From a virus (Duplodnaviria; Caudoviricetes), in the IMG/VR virus record IMGVR_UViG_2936514734_000001, positions 128,001-192,000 of that record: a DNA stretch of 64,000 nt; one strand, written 5' to 3'. This document shows positions 20,442 to 63,004 of this stretch, piece after piece; position 1 is the first letter of the stretch, and each line of letters opens with the position of its first letter. The position numbers and the translations under genes were made by a program. The notes below the pieces were generated by a model, which was not told the origin of the DNA, searched no databases, and saw nothing but the letters and a program-made list of their open reading frames with translations.

Positions 20442-20515
20442 TGGCAGGGGCAGTAGGAGTTGAACCCACACTGACGGTTTTGGAGACCGTAGTTCTACCT
20501 TTAAACTATACCCCT
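20442..20515 (-). tRNA. tRNA-Trp(CCA)
   Basis: Canonical cloverleaf; ACGGT-CTCCAAA-ACCGT anticodon arm; encoded CCA. Confidence 0.9.
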
Positions 20516-20527
20516 AGAATATATTCA

Positions 20528-20723
20528 TGTGCTTACAGCGGGAGAGTCCTGACCCCTAGACGACATCGCTCCTTCCCCAGCCAGTAAAAGGTGAGAAATC
20601 TTTTACAGCAAGGTATGTAACACTGTACCCTAAAAAAGTTTCTCAGGCTTTTCTAAGTATTTTCAAGTGTATACGCAAAACGAAGCACGGATTCGAACCG
20701 TGGTTGCTCCCCTTGTAAGCACA
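20528..20723 (-). ncRNA. Circularly permuted tRNA-like RNA (YrlA/Y-RNA-like topology)
   Basis: Termini pair (UGUGCUUACA/UGUAAGCACA). T-arm CACGG-TTCGAAT-CCGTG lies 5' of D-arm GTCT-AGGGGTC-AGGAC; CTCCC/GGGAG stem continues into the terminal helix. Confidence 0.65.
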
Positions 20724-20881
20724 CGAAATATAAGGCGAGGTAATGGGGAATCGAACCCCAATAGTCACACCAGCGATAACCTACTTCTTTTAACTAGTAT
20801 TATACAAAGTAGAAAACAGGAATCGAACCCTATCGGTCAACCATGCTTACCTCATAAAAAGTGGGGGCGTTAGCCCCCGTA

Positions 20882-20995
20882 TAGACAAGGCAGGACTTGA
20901 ACCTGCAGTGGAGTTATTTATATATATCCTCTCATCCCATTTTTCAGGGCGTGTTTGCCAGGCGCGATCGCAACCTATATTCCACCACTTGTCTA
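20882..20995 (-). ncRNA. Aberrant class-II tRNA-like element (expanded D-loop, non-canonical anticodon arm)
   Basis: Acceptor AGACAAG/CTTGTCT; T-arm GCAGG-TTCAAGT-CCTGC; extra hairpin in the D-loop. Confidence 0.55.
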
Positions 20996-21136
20996 GTGTC
21001 CTTTGACCTGTACGCCTCCGAAGGGACACGTCTTTTAAGGGGAGACGCACAGGTTTTGCATTTCGCTAAGCTTAGATAGCTTAGACCGCCTGCTTGGCTA
21101 ACTTTTATAGTTCACATTAAAATGGTGAACCATTAA

Positions 21137-21209
21137 TGCCGACGATAGGACTTGAACCTACAACCTCCTGATTACAAGTCAGGCGCACTACCAATTGTGC
21201 TACACCGGC
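21137..21209 (-). tRNA. tRNA-Thr(UGU)
   Basis: Canonical cloverleaf; CCTGA-CTTGTAA-TCAGG; CCA not encoded. Confidence 0.9.
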
Positions 21210-21218
21210 ATAATAGCA

Positions 21219-21271
21219 ATCAACTAAGGGGAATTGAACCCTTTTCGACTACCGACAAGTCTCTTAGTTGA
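21219..21271 (-). ncRNA. Anticodon-less mini tRNA-like element
   Basis: TCAACTA/TAGTTGA acceptor, GACT/AGTC D-like hairpin, AGGG-TTCAATT-CCCC T-arm; no anticodon arm. Confidence 0.5.
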
Positions 21272-21278
21272 CCTTGAG

Positions 21279-21349
21279 TGATCTTAACAGGAGTTGAACC
21301 TGTGAGTGATAGTGTTTATCTATCGCGTTGACCGCTTCGCCATAAGACC
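21279..21349 (-). tRNA. Atypical tRNA (anticodon loop ATAAACA, nominal AAA); pseudo or mimic
   Basis: Full cloverleaf, but non-canonical anticodon loop. Confidence 0.55.
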
Positions 21350-21360
21350 ATATTACTGTG

Positions 21361-21552
21361 TTAGCTGCTTCTAACTTTAGAACGAATTGAATTATGTCCA
21401 TTTGGAAGACCAGTAGATGAAAACAACATACTTCCTGCATAATCTTTCTCCGCTACTTCACCGCATTCACATGTAGTTTCTGTTGTACCCATCTTTACGA
21501 TTTTCTCAAAAGATGTATCACATTTTTCACAATTAAATCTATAGATTGGCAT
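21361..21552 (-). CDS. FmdB-family zinc-ribbon protein
   Basis: MPIYRFNCEKCDTSFE...CECG. Confidence 0.85.
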   Translation of the reverse strand: MPIYRFNCEKCDTSFEKIVKMGTTETTCECGEVAEKDYAGSMLFSSTGLPNGHNSIRSKVRSS

Positions 21553-21554
21553 TG

Positions 21555-21773
21555 TTAATCTCCTAAGATTGGATTATGCGTTGAATACATAGGTGAACAA
21601 CCTTCATGAGATGGGAAAGTTAATTCTTGAACAGGTTCTTTACTTGTAAGAATTAGCACAGTATTATCTCTTTCAGCATCAAATCTTACATGAGAAATAT
21701 CTACTTCTTCAGGTAATTGCATAATCTTTTTTAATACAGATTTGCGTATAACAAGTTGTCCTTTAGCAGACAT
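21555..21773 (-). CDS. Hypothetical protein (true start probably MSAKGQ)
   Basis: RBS GAGGGG upstream of the ATG; the longer track ORF overlaps tRNAs. Confidence 0.6.
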   Translation of the reverse strand: MSAKGQLVIRKSVLKKIMQLPEEVDISHVRFDAERDNTVLILTSKEPVQELTFPSHEGCSPMYSTHNPILGD

Positions 21774-21801
21774 ATTGATCTTCCCCTCTATTAAATAAAG
21801 A

Positions 21802-21877
21802 TGGCGATCCCGACCGGATTTGAACCGGCGATCTCCTGCGTGACAGGCAGGCGTGTTAACCGCTACACTACGAGACC
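21802..21877 (-). tRNA. tRNA-Asp(GUC)
   Basis: CCTGC-CTGTCAC-GCAGG; CCA. Confidence 0.92.
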
Positions 21878-21880
21878 ATA

Positions 21881-21958
21881 TGGAGCGCAAGACAGGATTC
21901 GAACCTGTGAAATAATAGGGTTGCAACCTATCGCGTTAAGCCGCTTCGCCACATGCGC
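21881..21958 (-). tRNA. tRNA-Cys(GCA)
   Basis: ATAGG-TTGCAAC-CCTAT; U73; CCA. Confidence 0.88.
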
Positions 21959-21962
21959 GTAA

Positions 21963-22040
21963 TGGTCCGGGTGGAAAGACTTGAACTCTCGGCCTCCTGC
22001 TCCCAAAGCAGGCGCTCTAACCAAACTGAGCTACACCCGG
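21963..22040 (-). tRNA. tRNA-Pro(UGG)
   Basis: CCTGC-TTTGGGA-GCAGG; CCA. Confidence 0.9.
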
Positions 22041-22046
22041 ATTTTT

Positions 22047-22220
22047 TGGCGTGCACGGGCTGGAATCGAACCGCCCTTCCACTATGGTCTATCCTATTCT
22101 GACAATAGGGGTTTGTCATAGCTGATCTCTCGCCAACCTAACCGTATCCTTTCCTTCATGTTGTCAGATGCATGAAATACTCCAACGCTTCGTGAAAGGT
22201 TAGCTTCGCCTGAGCTGCAC
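22047..22220 (-). ncRNA. 174-nt CCA-terminated tRNA-like RNA with expanded internal domain
   Basis: GTGCA/GTGCAC-GCCA acceptor; T-arm GGGCGG-TTCGATT-CCAGCCC; two internal hairpins with complementary loops. Confidence 0.65.
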
Positions 22221-22231
22221 ATATTAAATAA

Positions 22232-22305
22232 TGGCTCTTGATTGACTTGAACAATCGACCTTTCCCTTATGAGGGGAACGCTCTAACCAACTGAGCTAAA
22301 GAGCC
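22232..22305 (-). tRNA. tRNA-Met/Ile2(CAU)
   Basis: TTCCC-CTCATAA-GGGAA. Confidence 0.85.
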
Positions 22306-22309
22306 GAAG

Positions 22310-22386
22310 TGGTGGACCTTACAGGATTCGAACCTGTGACCGGACGGTTATGAGCCGTCTGCTCTAACCAGCTGAGCTAAAGGTCC
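22310..22386 (-). tRNA. tRNA-Ile2(CAU), lysidine type
   Basis: GGACCTTTAGCTCAG...GACGG-CTCATAA-CCGTC; closely resembles Bacillus tRNA-Ile2 as recalled. Confidence 0.88.
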
Positions 22387-22389
22387 ATT

Positions 22390-22462
22390 TGGTTGCAGAG
22401 GCAGGAGTTGAACCTGCGTAGTCTTGGTTATGAGCCAAGATGGAATACCCATTCACACTGCT
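22390..22462 (-). tRNA. tRNA-Met(CAU), initiator-like (1:72 mismatch), short D-arm
   Basis: CTTGG-CTCATAA-CCAAG; ACCA end. Confidence 0.7.
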
Positions 22463-22596
22463 ATAATGAAAGACTCCTATGATATTCCCACACATCATAG
22501 GAGTTATTATGATACGGCTATATATCATAATTCTTCTTTTCATACTTCAAGAAAGGAGTGACTTCGTGGCGGGTTATCTTCATAACCCATAATAAA

Positions 22597-22669
22597 AGGT
22601 GCGCCTTACAGGAATTGAACCTGTCCTCGCCCGCGCGGTTGGGCAGTACTACCGCTATACTAAAGGCGC
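22597..22669 (-). tRNA. Atypical tRNA, undetermined anticodon (8-nt loop AACCGCGC)
   Basis: Good acceptor, D and T arms; aberrant anticodon loop; ends ACCT. Confidence 0.55.
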
Positions 22670-22735
22670 ATTGCGCTCAAAGGGATTAAGGAGACCCCTA
22701 AACCTGTAGGTTGTATTTTATGAGCGTCTTGGTAA

Positions 22736-22808
22736 TGGAAGATGAAGGAGTTGAACCTCCGACGCGTAGATCTTCAATCTACCGCTCTACCAACTGAGCT
22801 AATCCTCC
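22736..22808 (-). tRNA. tRNA-Phe(GAA)
   Basis: GTAGA-TTGAAGA-TCTAC. Confidence 0.88.
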
Positions 22809-22809
22809 A

Positions 22810-22884
22810 TGGAGCACCTCACGGGAATCGAACCCGTACTGTCTGCTTGGAAGGCAGAAGTCATAGCCATTAGACCAGAAGCGC
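22810..22884 (-). tRNA. tRNA-Gly(UCC)
   Basis: TCTGC-CTTCCAA-GCAGA; TCCA end. Confidence 0.9.
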
Positions 22885-23039
22885 ACAATCTACGGTTTTC
22901 CGATACCGTAGAAAGAATAAAATAGAGTTCTTATAAAGTGAAAGGAAGGATTTAAATGATAACAGGAAAAGCTATAAAACTAACCCGTACATTATTTAAA
23001 CGGTGACAGGAAGTACCTTTCGGTAAGCCCTGTCATGTA

Positions 23040-23127
23040 TGGAGGAGGGAGCGGGATTCGAACCCGCGGATGTTTTACCACCTCTGGTTTTCAAGACCAG
23101 TACAATAAGCCTCTCTGTCACCCCTCC
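23040..23127 (-). tRNA. tRNA-Ser(UGA)
   Basis: CTGGT-CTTGAAA-ACCAG; long variable arm. Confidence 0.88.
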
Positions 23128-23128
23128 G

Positions 23129-23219
23129 TGGCGGAAGGTAAGGGATTTGAACCCTTGCGCCGACTTAGCGACCTACACCCTTAGCAGGGGCGCCTCTTCA
23201 GCCTCTTGAGTAACCTTCC
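23129..23219 (-). tRNA. tRNA-Ser(GCU)
   Basis: CGCCC-CTGCTAA-GGGTG; long variable arm; GCCA end. Confidence 0.9.
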
Positions 23220-23221
23220 AT

Positions 23222-23305
23222 TGGCACCCATTGAAGGAATCGAACCTCTTGGGAATGGTTTTGGAGACCATCGACTTACCTCTCGTCTTTAACCCTCTAA
23301 TGGAT
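23222..23305 (-). tRNA. Second tRNA-Trp(CCA) with ~10-nt insertion between acceptor stem and D-arm
   Basis: ATGGT-CTCCAAA-ACCAT; acceptor ATCCATT/AATGGGT-GCCA. Confidence 0.65.
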
Positions 23306-23310
23306 ATTGA

Positions 23311-23384
23311 TAGCACTGACGGGATTCGAACCCGCGTATGACCGATAGAAAGTCGGCTGTGTTAGGCCACTTCACCACAGTGCT
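23311..23384 (-). tRNA. tRNA-Glu(UUC)
   Basis: GCCGA-CTTTCTA-TCGGT. Confidence 0.82.
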
Positions 23385-23418
23385 AGATTAAGATGTGACT
23401 TAGAGCCACATCGATTAA

Positions 23419-23811
23419 TTAACTTTTTAATAAGAAATTGAAGTTAGTAAACACTCTTCGTTCAGGGCTAGTATCCCATTGTGATACTTTTTCTTCTGGA
23501 AAATGCACAAAGTCTACAATAACATGAGCATTTACATCCGGAAGTAAGTAAAGGAGTTTCACTATTTTGATGTAATTATTGTCTTGGATAGTTTCAGCTT
23601 CAACTAGTTCAGCTTCAATAGTAGGAAAATCCGTTGCACCGCTTCCTTTATAATTCAACGAAGAAACATAGGTACGGGCATCTGTTAAGCTATTTCTAGA
23701 TGTGTCATTGATGAATCGAGTATTAGTTAACCCATCTACATAGGCAACTACTTGTTCTTCTAAACCATCATACTTAAATAAATAAGTAGCTTCTTTTTTT
23801 ACTACTGACAA
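23419..23811 (-). CDS. Hypothetical protein within the tRNA array
   Basis: 130-aa ORF, RBS GAGGGTG. Confidence 0.65.
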   Translation of the reverse strand: MSVVKKEATYLFKYDGLEEQVVAYVDGLTNTRFINDTSRNSLTDARTYVSSLNYKGSGATDFPTIEAELVEAETIQDNNYIKIVKLLYLLPDVNAHVIVDFVHFPEEKVSQWDTSPERRVFTNFNFLLKS

Positions 23812-23833
23812 TTTAACACCCTCTTCAAAGATT

Positions 23834-23908
23834 TGGCTGCGGGGGAAGGATTCGAACCCTCGTATCCATGAACCAAAATCATGTGCCTTACCGCTTGGCT
23901 ACCCCGTA
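23834..23908 (-). tRNA. tRNA-Gln(UUG)
   Basis: CATGA-TTTTGGT-TCATG; GCCA end. Confidence 0.88.
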
Positions 23909-23911
23909 ATA

Positions 23912-23987
23912 TGGCTCCACCTGCAGGTCTCGAACCTGCGACCACTTGATTAACAGTCAAGCGCTCTACCAACTGAGCTAAGGTGGA
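23912..23987 (-). tRNA. tRNA-Asn(GUU)
   Basis: CTTGA-CTGTTAA-TCAAG; GCCA end. Confidence 0.92.
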
Positions 23988-24062
23988 ATAATGAGTAAGG
24001 AGCAACCCTCTGCACCACGGACTCGAACCGTGACCCCTACTACTTAATGTGACTGTTTGAAT

Positions 24063-24091
24063 AAGGTAAACACTTCATTTCCATTTGTCAA
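24063..24091 (-). promoter_or_regulatory. SigA-like promoter for the tRNA array
   Basis: TTGACA-N17-TACCTT with AT-rich upstream region. Confidence 0.7.
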
Positions 24092-24125: not shown

Positions 24126-24452
24126 TTGCTACCTACACTGCCTAGCAGTGATTGAAGGTGTGTATAAAAGCCATTTTACTGTTATCCAGGGTTTTTAAAG
24201 AATGTTAAGGCCTTTACCATTTTAGCTTTAGAAATTAAAAAACTTTAAGTCCTAAGCTTTACTCTTTATAACTTTAAGGTTTAAACTTTTCACCCATTTG
24301 TCTTGTATCTACAAGATATCTGTATTGTTCTCTCTTATTATGAGAAACCTTTTAGTTTAGCCCTATGCTATACAAAGTAATTGGAGCGGGGAAAGTTTAA
24401 CGTCCTCCCTGCAAAGACGTATACACGTTTTAACGTTCCGTGTAAGTAGCAA
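24126..24452 (-). ncRNA. Candidate 327-nt structured RNA with TAAAG repeats
   Basis: 13-bp terminal helix with a G-U pair only on the minus strand; ~7-nt periodic AAAG tract. Confidence 0.55.
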
Positions 24453-24467
24453 GTTATAATTTAGCTA

Positions 24468-25088
24468 TTAGTCTAATTCGATGAATGTAGTTGCGTTTAC
24501 CTCAGATAAACAAGCATCTACCTCAACTAAGAAACTATTAATTTCTTCTTCAAGTTTCTTGATTTCTTCACGAATTGAAATAGGATCAACCATGTTAGGT
24601 TCATTACGTTTCTTGAAGTCAGCGGTTGTTTTCTCTACTTCTTCAGCAAAGTTCTTACGATCCTTACCAAAGTCAGAATTCAAACGTTGATCAAGACGGA
24701 TCTCCATTTCACGACGTTCACGTTCAATCTCTTGATTTACTACAGCGAGTTGACGATTTAATTCATGGAGTAATGACTGCTTATAGTGAATAGCATCTTT
24801 CTGATCAATTGCCTCAGCAATAGTCATTACGACACCAGCAATCTTCACTTCAGTCGTTGCATTTACCAGAATTAATTTAGATTTAATTTCGTTACGACGT
24901 TTGATTAGGTCATTAGCAGATTGGTATCCGCTTTTCGCTAATTCTTCGAACTGCTCTTTAGAGTTATATCCACGAGGCTTCTCGCTTCCTGTTTGAAAAG
25001 TAACAAACTTCTCTCCATTAATAGCTCCTGCAATTCGTTTGTCCAGCATCTTTAATTCAGATAGTGCACGGTGTAAAGATAATTTCAT
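24468..25088 (-). CDS. Coiled-coil protein (DIP1984/DUF6847-like)
   Basis: MKLSLHRALSELKMLDKRI...MTIAEAI...EVDACLSEVNATTFIE pattern. Confidence 0.65.
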   Translation of the reverse strand: MKLSLHRALSELKMLDKRIAGAINGEKFVTFQTGSEKPRGYNSKEQFEELAKSGYQSANDLIKRRNEIKSKLILVNATTEVKIAGVVMTIAEAIDQKDAIHYKQSLLHELNRQLAVVNQEIERERREMEIRLDQRLNSDFGKDRKNFAEEVEKTTADFKKRNEPNMVDPISIREEIKKLEEEINSFLVEVDACLSEVNATTFIELD

Positions 25089-25269: not shown

Positions 25270-25974
25270 TTATTTAAGTTTTAATACCTGTCCGATGCTA
25301 AGTAAATCAGACTTTAAGCCGTTGAGAGATTTTAGCTTTTCAACTGTCATCTTGTGGTCTTTAGCGATTCCCCAAAGAGTGTCACCTTTTACAACTTTGT
25401 AATTCTCACAAGTTGAAGGTGAACCTGATACTGTTTTACCAGTTAAAGCATGAACAATTGCATTACATGCTCTTTCGATGCCACCGCTAACCATTAATTT
25501 GTTCATATCATCTTTATTATCGATGAAAGCAACTTCAATTAAGATAGCCGGTGCATTAGTACTATTGATAAAACCAATTTTCTTACCATCTTTAGGTCCG
25601 CGATCTGTCGTACCTAATTTAGCAGAAAGTTCTTTTGAAACTTTAGCAGCTAAATCTTTTTGGTTATAGAAAAGAACTTCAGTACCATGTCCTTTTCCAT
25701 TACTAGCGTTTAAATGAATACTAACGTCTAAACGACCAGATGCAGAGTTTTTGTTGCAGTTCTTAACTGCATTAGACCAAACAGCGGTTTTAGTTCTACC
25801 TACATCATCAGTACAGATTTTCACATTTTGACCAACTGATTTTAACTGCTTCTCTAATTCCTTAACAATTGTACGAGCTACTTCGTGTTCTTTATAGCCA
25901 CATCCACTTGCTCCAGGTATGATTGCGTTATGACCAGCGGTTAATGTAATAAGTTTATAACTCATATTAGCCAT
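25270..25974 (-). CDS. N-acetylmuramoyl-L-alanine amidase (Amidase_3) + LysM; endolysin
   Basis: AGH, E, SIHLNA, AILIEVAFIDN; YKVVKGDTLWGIA LysM. Confidence 0.92.
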   Translation of the reverse strand: MANMSYKLITLTAGHNAIIPGASGCGYKEHEVARTIVKELEKQLKSVGQNVKICTDDVGRTKTAVWSNAVKNCNKNSASGRLDVSIHLNASNGKGHGTEVLFYNQKDLAAKVSKELSAKLGTTDRGPKDGKKIGFINSTNAPAILIEVAFIDNKDDMNKLMVSGGIERACNAIVHALTGKTVSGSPSTCENYKVVKGDTLWGIAKDHKMTVEKLKSLNGLKSDLLSIGQVLKLK

Positions 25975-26067: not shown

Positions 26068-26913
26068 TTATGCTACACGGATTTTTTGACCAACAGTGAT
26101 TTTATTAATGTCTTGAATATCAGGATTCAAAGCTTTAATTTTATCAACTGTTGTATTGTACTTAACTGCAATTGCAGAAACTGTATCACCTGCTACTACC
26201 GTATAGTACACCGCTGTAGACTTCACTTTTAACACTTGACCGATAGTGATAATGTCTGAAGTTAAACCGTTTAATTGTTTAAGTTCATCTACAGTCATTT
26301 GATATTTATTAGCGATAGACCAAAGAGTATCACCTGCTACAACTGTATATGTGTCAGTTGCAAGAGATGGTTCAGTAACACCAGCAACTTTACCTGTTAA
26401 GGTTTTAACAATTGCTTGAGCTACTTTCTGAACACCACCAGGGCCCATTACTTTGTCCATATCAGATTGAGTATCAATGAAGCCAGTTTCGACAAGAATA
26501 GCCGGAGCATTTGTTGAGTTAAGGAAACCAATTCCTTGTCGCTCTTGAGGACCACGATCTTTATAACCCATTGCAGTAGCAAGGTCTTTTGATACTTTAG
26601 CTGCAAGTTCTACTTCGCTGTAATAAAGAACCTCACAACCAGTTCCACCACCAGCATTTAAGTGAATACTTACATCTAAACGTCCTTCTTTTGGAAAGCT
26701 ATTAGCTTTTCTTACAGCGTTAGTCCAAACTTCAGTTTGAGTTGTTCCAATGTCATCTGTTACAACTTCTACGTTTTGACCTACTGCCTTCATCTGCTTT
26801 TCAAGTTCAGCAACAATCAATCTAGCTACTTCATGTTCCTTGTAGCCACATCCGTATGCTCCTGGAACAATCGCATTATGGCCCGCTGTTAAAGTGATTA
26901 AATTATAACTCAA
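26068..26913 (-). CDS. Amidase_3 + 2 LysM; paralogous endolysin
   Basis: Same catalytic motifs; two YTVVAGDT LysM repeats. Confidence 0.92.
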
Positions 26914-62915: not shown

Positions 62916-63004
62916 GGGGAATGTGAACGGGATTCGAACCCGTGACCCAAGTACCTAGCATACGCATTATAGGTCCATCGCTCTACCTACTGAGCTATCA
63001 CATC
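62916..63004 (-). ncRNA. Isolated tRNA-like RNA with expanded anticodon arm
   Basis: Acceptor GATGTGA/TCACATT; canonical D-arm GCTC/GAGC; T-arm ACGGG-TTCGAAT-CCCGT; ACCTA/TAGGT stem with 12-nt loop. Confidence 0.6.

Follow-up and report, generated by a model that had tools for sequence, protein, structure and literature searches.

Introduction

Several bacterial proteins act on short, regularly spaced RNA repeats. The oligomeric protein TRAP recognizes 9–11 (G/U)AG triplets spaced by 2–3 nucleotides (nt) in 5' leaders, and the oligomeric protein HutP acts on the hut leader, where its sites recur every 7 nt. Phages also carry ROOL and GOLLD, large structured noncoding RNAs (ncRNAs) that often lie beside tRNA genes and whose function is reported as unknown (PMC12286853). 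Here we describe a locus in a 64-kb stretch of DNA (the window) from the 239-kb viral record IMGVR_UViG_2936514734_000001, where a 327-nt RNA element follows a gene for a helical protein of family PHROG 1491; all coordinates are window positions. This element, at 24126–24452 on the minus strand, is a member of a large undescribed family of ~300–450-nt structured phage RNAs. The family is widespread, is formed on the strand of the gene, and is tightly linked to this one protein family.

Results

A structured RNA element follows the PHROG 1491 gene

The gene and the parts of the RNA element are as follows.

24468–25088, minus strand: helical protein gene, 206 aa (open reading frame (ORF) call; PHROG 1491, E 2.4e-65; homologue of T5.085)
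24126–24452, minus strand: whole structured RNA element, 327 nt (coordinates re-derived; kept in relatives; without Rfam match at E ≤ 10)
24440–24452, minus strand: 5' strand of the closing stem P1, UUGCUACUUACAC (13 bp with 24126–24138)
24126–24138, minus strand: 3' strand of P1, GUGUAGGUAGCAA (partner of 24440–24452, on the same pairing and covariation basis)
24386–24420, minus strand: 5' H-type pseudoknot (S1, 24416–24420 with 24400–24404; S2, 24407–24412 with 24386–24391, with one A·C mismatch in S2)
24292–24385, minus strand: variable middle with local hairpins (least conserved part; nucleotide identity to relatives 0.53–0.68)
24211–24291, minus strand: heptad tract of ~10 units, family consensus G-Y-U-Y-A-A-A (AARG count, Tandem Repeats Finder and family autocorrelation)
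24141–24190, minus strand: 3' domain (long-range helix of CCUGG, 24186–24190, with CUAGG, 24141–24145; inner helix of CAG, 24179–24181, with CUG, 24146–24148)

The 5' end of the RNA lies 15 nt past the stop codon of the gene, and both are present in single copy in the 239-kb genome. The coordinates and sequence given for gene and element in an initial annotation, made from the DNA letters of the window, hold on re-derivation. No ORF of at least 40 aa was found to overlap 24126–24452. The fold-energy z-score of the element is -2.9 on either strand, so energy alone gives no choice of strand.

The fold has five parts, namely a terminal closing stem, a 5' H-type pseudoknot, a variable middle, the heptad tract, and a long-range helix that abuts the closing stem. 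The order is the same in all copies, and runs from P1 through a G-AAA junction, the pseudoknot (S1 and S2), the variable region and the heptad tract into the 3' domain. There, all copies carry AAAWCC and a 5-bp long-range helix around a 3' hairpin domain, followed by GG-C-UG leading into the 3' strand of P1.

P1 covaries and assigns the structure to the strand of the gene

In the window, UUGCUACUUACAC (24452–24440) pairs with GUGUAGGUAGCAA (24138–24126) to form 13 bp that include one U·G pair. This wobble is confined to the strand of the gene, as the initial annotation had pointed out, because it would be an A·C mismatch on the opposite strand. Among nine close relatives, alignment column counts give canonical pairing in 115 of 117 cells, with compensatory changes at 6 of the 13 pairs. 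In a set of 24 diverse copies, the pairing rate of the two P1 strands is 0.97 when both come from the same copy and 0.46 when they come from different copies. The P1 cells of these 24 copies comprise 268 Watson-Crick, 61 G·U, 1 A·C and 8 other combinations, a G·U versus A·C count that is somewhat biased because the stems were defined with G·U allowed as a pair. Despite this bias, the excess of G·U over A·C indicates that the structure forms in RNA of the same strand as the gene, and it speaks against a palindrome in DNA.

The pseudoknot and the long-range helix recur with different sequences

The pseudoknot topology is common to the T5, Vibrio, Cronobacter, Xanthomonas, Pseudomonas and Bacillus copies, and its stems are wholly different in sequence between lineages while complementarity is kept. 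For example, the two stems are ACCUCG/CGAGGU and CAGCGGUU/GACCGCUG in T5, ACUCUU/GGGAGU and AAGCGGUA/UACCGCUU in Vibrio, and CGCCG/CGGCG and GUUGGG/CCCAAC in one Bacillus relative. A generic pseudoknot scorer performed no better than on shuffled sequences (observed scores 11–15, shuffled mean 12.0), and the assignment therefore rests on homologous position and covarying sequences rather than on this score. Column counts for S1 and S2 are low in the two most divergent close relatives, where the MAFFT columns misalign these stems.

The segment AAAAACCCUGG, which had been noted after the repeat tract, is present and forms the 5' strand of the conserved long-range helix. Column counts over the nine close relatives give 43 of 45 canonical cells and two compensatory pairs for this helix, and it occurs in the family as CCUAG/CUAGG, CCAAG/CUUGG, CCUGG/CCAGG and CUCGG/CCGAG. 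RNAalifold predicts 33 pairs from eight close relatives, 12 of them with compensatory changes.

A tract of 7-nt repeats precedes the 3' domain

The AAAG repeats at ~7-nt spacing that were first reported for this element correspond to the tract at 24291–24211. AARG occurs eight times in 90 nt of this tract versus 4.4 times in dinucleotide shuffles (P = 0.011), and Tandem Repeats Finder reports a period-14 array, equal to two times seven, with 3.5 copies at 24240–24289. The 7-nt period recurs over 53 non-redundant copies, in which the autocorrelation of YAA starts peaks at 7, 14, 21 and 28 nt. The tract is probably single-stranded, and its heptads resemble strings of T-loop-type pentamers (UUCAA, UUUAA).

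The RNA is conserved in close relatives and in distant phages

Close homologues of the protein (56–72% identity) are encoded on ~235-kb contigs of Bacillus cereus-group and Gottfriedia assemblies, and also on SRA contigs. These relatives share the order of an ~850-aa protein, an endolysin, the PHROG 1491 gene, the RNA, a TTGACA promoter-like site and a tRNA array. Nucleotide identity to them is 0.73–0.94 in the 5' 70 nt of the element, 0.74–0.88 in its last 85 nt and 0.53–0.68 in its middle, and is 0.65–0.74 in the gene; the ends of the element are thus more conserved than the adjoining coding sequence. Two strains that are ~5% diverged show no substitution in 24385–24452 among the differences listed, and these differences include many substitutions and indels in 24320–24384.

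The suggestion, in the initial annotation, that similar genes in other Firmicutes are followed by a similar tract proved correct for these relatives. The same annotation held that homologous genes without a conserved downstream RNA would speak against its proposal, and on inspection the closed RNA and the tract stand behind homologous genes in most of the phages examined. These large phages range from Bacillus jumbo phages to phage T5. The hosts of phages with both gene and RNA include Bacillus, Clostridioides, Lactococcus, Vibrio, Pseudomonas, Xanthomonas, Erwinia, Salmonella and E. coli. The architecture recurs in T5 (behind T5.085), Enterobacter phage KKP_3711, Deep Blue, KLEB27-3, phiCDIF1296T, Lactococcus phage AM3, Vibrio phage Noelle, phiPsa397, Bitten, Xanthomonas phage XaC1, Erwinia phage RAY, Salmonella phage 7-11 and Cronobacter phage EspYZU08. 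Every record examined in this wider family has an unannotated gap of 340–640 nt 3' of the gene, and the RNA architecture lies inside it in all except Aeromonas phage LAh_9, where the 606-nt gap behind the homologue holds no clear RNA copy. The T5-type RNA sequence is found at ≥89% identity in 440 T5-like records, and none of the 60 records listed carries an RNA annotation for it.

No match was obtained by blastn of the window region against the phage collection, by a pattern scan of viral contigs with a single protein, or by a search for the exact RNA motif in genome contigs. A set of 118 metagenome loci retrieved with a 15-base motif was dismissed as chance matches, in which nhmmer and tblastn found neither RNA nor gene apart from one weak nhmmer row without a protein gene.

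Three individual records deserve mention. The variable region of the RAY copy (2740–2815 of locus L026) holds an apparent circularly permuted tRNA-like insert, composed of a T-arm, a capped acceptor-like hairpin, a D-arm and an anticodon-like arm, for which ARAGORN makes no call. In LAh_9 (L027), the PHROG 1491 homologue is immediately preceded by a gene (1600–1896) annotated as a ProQ-like RNA chaperone. In Pseudomonas phage Bitten (L022), a 1,089-nt ORF at 1506–2594 is annotated over the homologue on the opposite strand, and is probably a mis-annotation.

Gene and RNA are linked when either is used as the query

A profile scan of viral contigs with the protein yielded 368 loci, of which 80 were kept. 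These were searched with a home-made strict detector that demands P1 together with the long-range helix, no more than 100 nt between stop codon and RNA start, and a length of 250–480 nt. The RNA was detected in 66 of the 80 loci, with 29 different P1 sequences among them; many of the sampled loci are closely related. Controls gave 2 of 80 on the antisense strand and 0 of 78 upstream, and about seven of the 14 loci missed by the detector hold variant copies. One contig (L158) stops 112 nt past the gene, with the start of a likely RNA copy visible. In the reverse direction, all ten loci found by RNA motif, which are closely related, have the gene upstream on the same strand.

Among 24 copies, the RNA starts within 37 nt of the stop codon in 17, and an intrinsic terminator lies 3' of the RNA in ten. 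Because no terminator stands between gene and RNA in most copies, the RNA is probably made as a 3' extension of the PHROG 1491 mRNA. In T5, T5.086, T5.085 and the RNA form one unit flanked by annotated promoters. Terminator-like hairpins that separate gene and RNA are seen in phiCDIF1296T (L019), KKP_3711 (L023) and EspYZU08 (L025), and could set the protein:RNA ratio or mark a separate promoter for the RNA.

The linked gene encodes a helical protein

The PHROG 1491 profile matches residues 2–205 of the 206-aa protein (E 2.4e-65), which makes it a full-length member of this family. No Pfam, NCBIfam or PADLOC family was assigned to it, and the only signal from PADLOC and Pfam is a weak coiled-coil match to JetC (E 0.0013). 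The protein is encoded in 736 phage-collection records by tblastn. Its family comprises 3,718 clusters at 50% identity, and the best matches listed are nearly all ~195–217 aa long. One member (P0153) is 474 aa long with three matched stretches, and may have arisen by tandem duplication of the ~206-aa unit or by a fusion of it.

In an AlphaFold2 model (predicted local distance difference test score 92.8), long helical hairpins carry a four-stranded mini-sheet at one end. The conserved positions, which map to the N-terminal helix, residues 61–97, a GKDRK motif and residues 186–203, cluster near this small sheet at one end of the molecule. Comparison of the window protein with PDB entry 3kdq from Corynebacterium diphtheriae, its top match by both sequence profile and fold, gives a profile E of 0.014, a Foldseek probability of 1.0 with template modeling scores of 0.42–0.55, and a VIA Z of 9.9 with a root-mean-square deviation of 8.6 Å over 151 residues. 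A central N..T....mT.AeAi motif may be common to both, whereas 3kdq is cellular and has 154 aa compared with ~206 aa.

Some records label PHROG 1491 or T5.085 as 'tail fiber protein'. This label is probably wrong. A tail-fiber identity does not fit the T5 gene, which is located in the early region among genes annotated as exonuclease, endolysin and 'tRNA amidotransferase', nor does it fit the window, where the gene lies between endolysins and a tRNA array and the model is a helical hairpin bundle.

The module adjoins a tRNA array

Two further features lie downstream of the RNA.

24086–24091, minus strand: conserved -35-like TTGACA, 3' of the RNA (columns invariant among the aligned relatives)
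20442–23987, minus strand: tRNA array of 17 genes, directly downstream of the RNA (ARAGORN and Rfam)

The array holds 17 of the 18 tRNAs of the genome, and the RNA stands at the head of this, the only tRNA array present. Most RNA loci have tRNA genes within 2.5 kb. TTGACA at 24086–24091 is probably part of a promoter of the array; the -10 element of the site is weak in the window, and a promoter scan made no call there.

A tRNA-like fragment that bears a T-arm without a matching 5' acceptor strand is located at 23992–24047 (minus strand), downstream of the TTGACA site and ahead of the first intact tRNA. ARAGORN also reports a tRNA-like gene with an 8-nt anticodon loop and the four-base anticodon ccgc at 22598–22669 (minus strand), which may be of the frameshift-suppressor type or aberrant. 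Two tRNAs with unusual anticodons, Phe-AAA and Tyr-ATA (the latter by whole-genome ARAGORN), are at 21278–21349 and 62919–63004 (both minus strand). Upstream of the module are two tandem paralogous ORFs on the minus strand, at 25270–25974 and 26068–26913. The former has Amidase_3 and LysM domains and endolysin PHROG matches, and the translation of the latter looks alike.

Discussion

The proposal of an undescribed module of a protein gene and an ncRNA, made in the initial annotation, is strongly supported by conservation, covariation and linkage tests in both directions. From this linkage and the repeat period, we lean towards a reading in which the RNA and the helical protein form a ribonucleoprotein with the heptads as protein sites. 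Copies of the protein, whose conserved residues gather at one end of the molecule, would find sites at even intervals along the heptad tract, and the structured ends of the RNA would define and protect the particle.

Several observations weigh against a ribonucleoprotein. Linkage alone does not tell a complex from co-regulation, and at least seven of the 80 loci found through the protein hold no recognizable copy of the RNA. Three of 24 copies have a terminator-like hairpin between gene and RNA, and gene and RNA are 0.3–1.35 kb apart with intervening ORFs in L012, L013 and KLEB27-3 (1.35 kb in KLEB27-3). The protein family is mildly acidic (median isoelectric point 5.7), so a simple RNA coat is not favored, and family searches recognize no RNA-binding domain in the protein. 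The closest PDB relative, 3kdq, is an uncharacterized protein of unknown function.

Some of these same observations would suit an RNA that works without the neighboring protein, either by RNA-only assembly or with a universal host factor, with the gene linkage arising from a shared cassette or promoter. The rich structure of the RNA itself, the acidic protein without an RNA-binding domain, and the distance of up to 1.35 kb from the gene all agree with this explanation, as does the tRNA-array neighborhood, which is also reported for ROOL and GOLLD (PMC12286853), RNAs for which such action is proposed. We nonetheless regard it as unlikely, given that linkage, order and strand are kept across phages without other shared synteny and in both directions of testing, and that no Rfam match to ROOL or GOLLD was found. 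An RNA that acts only in cis as a 3' untranslated region, as a stabilizer of the mRNA or as an operator for autoregulation by the protein, would account for the start at 6–37 nt past the stop codon in most copies and for the terminator that often follows. However, a pseudoknotted RNA of 300–450 nt with ~10 periodic repeats far exceeds the needs of known 3' stabilizers, and the RNA is kept even where other ORFs separate it from the gene, which makes this explanation improbable.

A toxin-antitoxin system of the type III kind, with a toxic protein and a neutralizing repeat RNA, was suggested by the presence of a repeat-bearing RNA beside a protein gene, and the terminator-like hairpin between them in 3 of 24 copies would be in keeping with it. 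We judge this highly improbable, since Pfam and PADLOC yield no ToxN-, AbiE- or AbiF-like match, the protein fold is helical, and the repeats are 7 nt rather than ~36 nt long and lie downstream of the gene. Terminal inverted repeats, an A+T-rich repeat tract and equal fold z-scores on both strands might instead point to an element that acts at the level of DNA, for example a mobile element with inverted repeats, an origin of replication or a site of recombination. This idea is scarcely credible in view of the 61 G·U versus 1 A·C combinations in P1, the compensatory changes in several helices, the fixed orientation to the gene, and a 7-bp period that does not fit the helical repeat of DNA.

Because the gene-RNA pair sits at the tRNA arrays of large virulent phages, the most likely role for the proposed ribonucleoprotein, as a guess from context, is phage control of tRNA or translation, or the countering of host defenses directed at RNA or tRNA. 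A more specific version, which we put forward as possible but rather doubtful, is a widespread ancient phage ribonucleoprotein in which about ten protein copies, or an oligomer, would occupy the heptads and the particle would benefit phages with tRNA arrays, for instance if it engages tRNAs or tRNA-handling enzymes or acts as a decoy for defenses that target tRNA or RNA. If the ribonucleoprotein reading is true, T5 and many other large phages, whether their hosts are Gram-positive or Gram-negative, encode a large structured RNA together with a dedicated partner gene, and this RNA is unannotated in the records examined. This would be a new RNA class in phage biology, linked to the unexplained biology of phage tRNA arrays. 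The module would also correct the widely propagated 'tail fiber protein' label.

Comparison with known systems

A search of the window region against Rfam 15, which includes ROOL, GOLLD, tmRNA, RNase P, 6S and Y RNA, gave no credible match at E ≤ 10, with four chance-level rows far below gathering scores. With the gathering cut-offs, the window yielded tRNAs and no other family. At E ≤ 0.1, six loci with homologous copies, T5 among them, returned only tRNAs. The literature searched by full text holds no description of the RNA family; a bulk catalogue of viral RNA candidates of 29–151 nt (PMC10690425) may hold fragments of it.

The initial annotation had likened the proposed complex to TRAP or to a type III antitoxin, and neither analogy was borne out. 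As with TRAP and HutP, short repeats are regularly spaced in RNA that is probably unpaired, and the 7-nt period is also that of the HutP sites. In contrast, the window motif is YAAA(G) rather than GAG, UAG or UAG-N4, and its period is 7 nt rather than the 5–6 nt of TRAP. The protein is helical and has neither a Pfam match nor a TRAP or HutP family match, and the RNA lies 3' of its gene and is no attenuator. Type III systems (ToxIN and relatives) also pair a protein gene with a repeat-bearing RNA in phage-related DNA, but there tandem repeats of ~34–36 nt lie upstream of an endoribonuclease gene, whereas here 7-nt units lie within a closed RNA downstream. Upstream of the window gene there are no tandem repeats of ~36 nt, and the protein has no RNase fold and no ToxN or AbiF family match in Pfam or PADLOC.

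With tmRNA-SmpB and RNase P, the family shares paired 5' and 3' ends, a pseudoknot, a long-range helix by the terminal helix, a connection with tRNAs and, as a candidate, a small partner protein. Unlike these RNAs, it is negative in ARAGORN and Rfam, lacks a 3' T-arm or CCA and a conserved P4-type sequence, and has a long-range helix that encloses only ~40–70 nt. A tmRNA was rejected because ARAGORN makes no call and no T-arm lies between the long-range helix and the 3' strand of P1. An RNase P-like reading of the AAAUCC...GGCUG helix was dropped because P4-type pairing is absent and the RNA has another topology.

The RNA resembles ROOL and GOLLD (PMC12286853) in being large, structured, phage-borne and located beside tRNA genes. 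It differs from them in having no covariance-model match, and the family to which it belongs is smaller, at ~300–450 nt, contains a tract of heptads, and is linked to a single protein gene.
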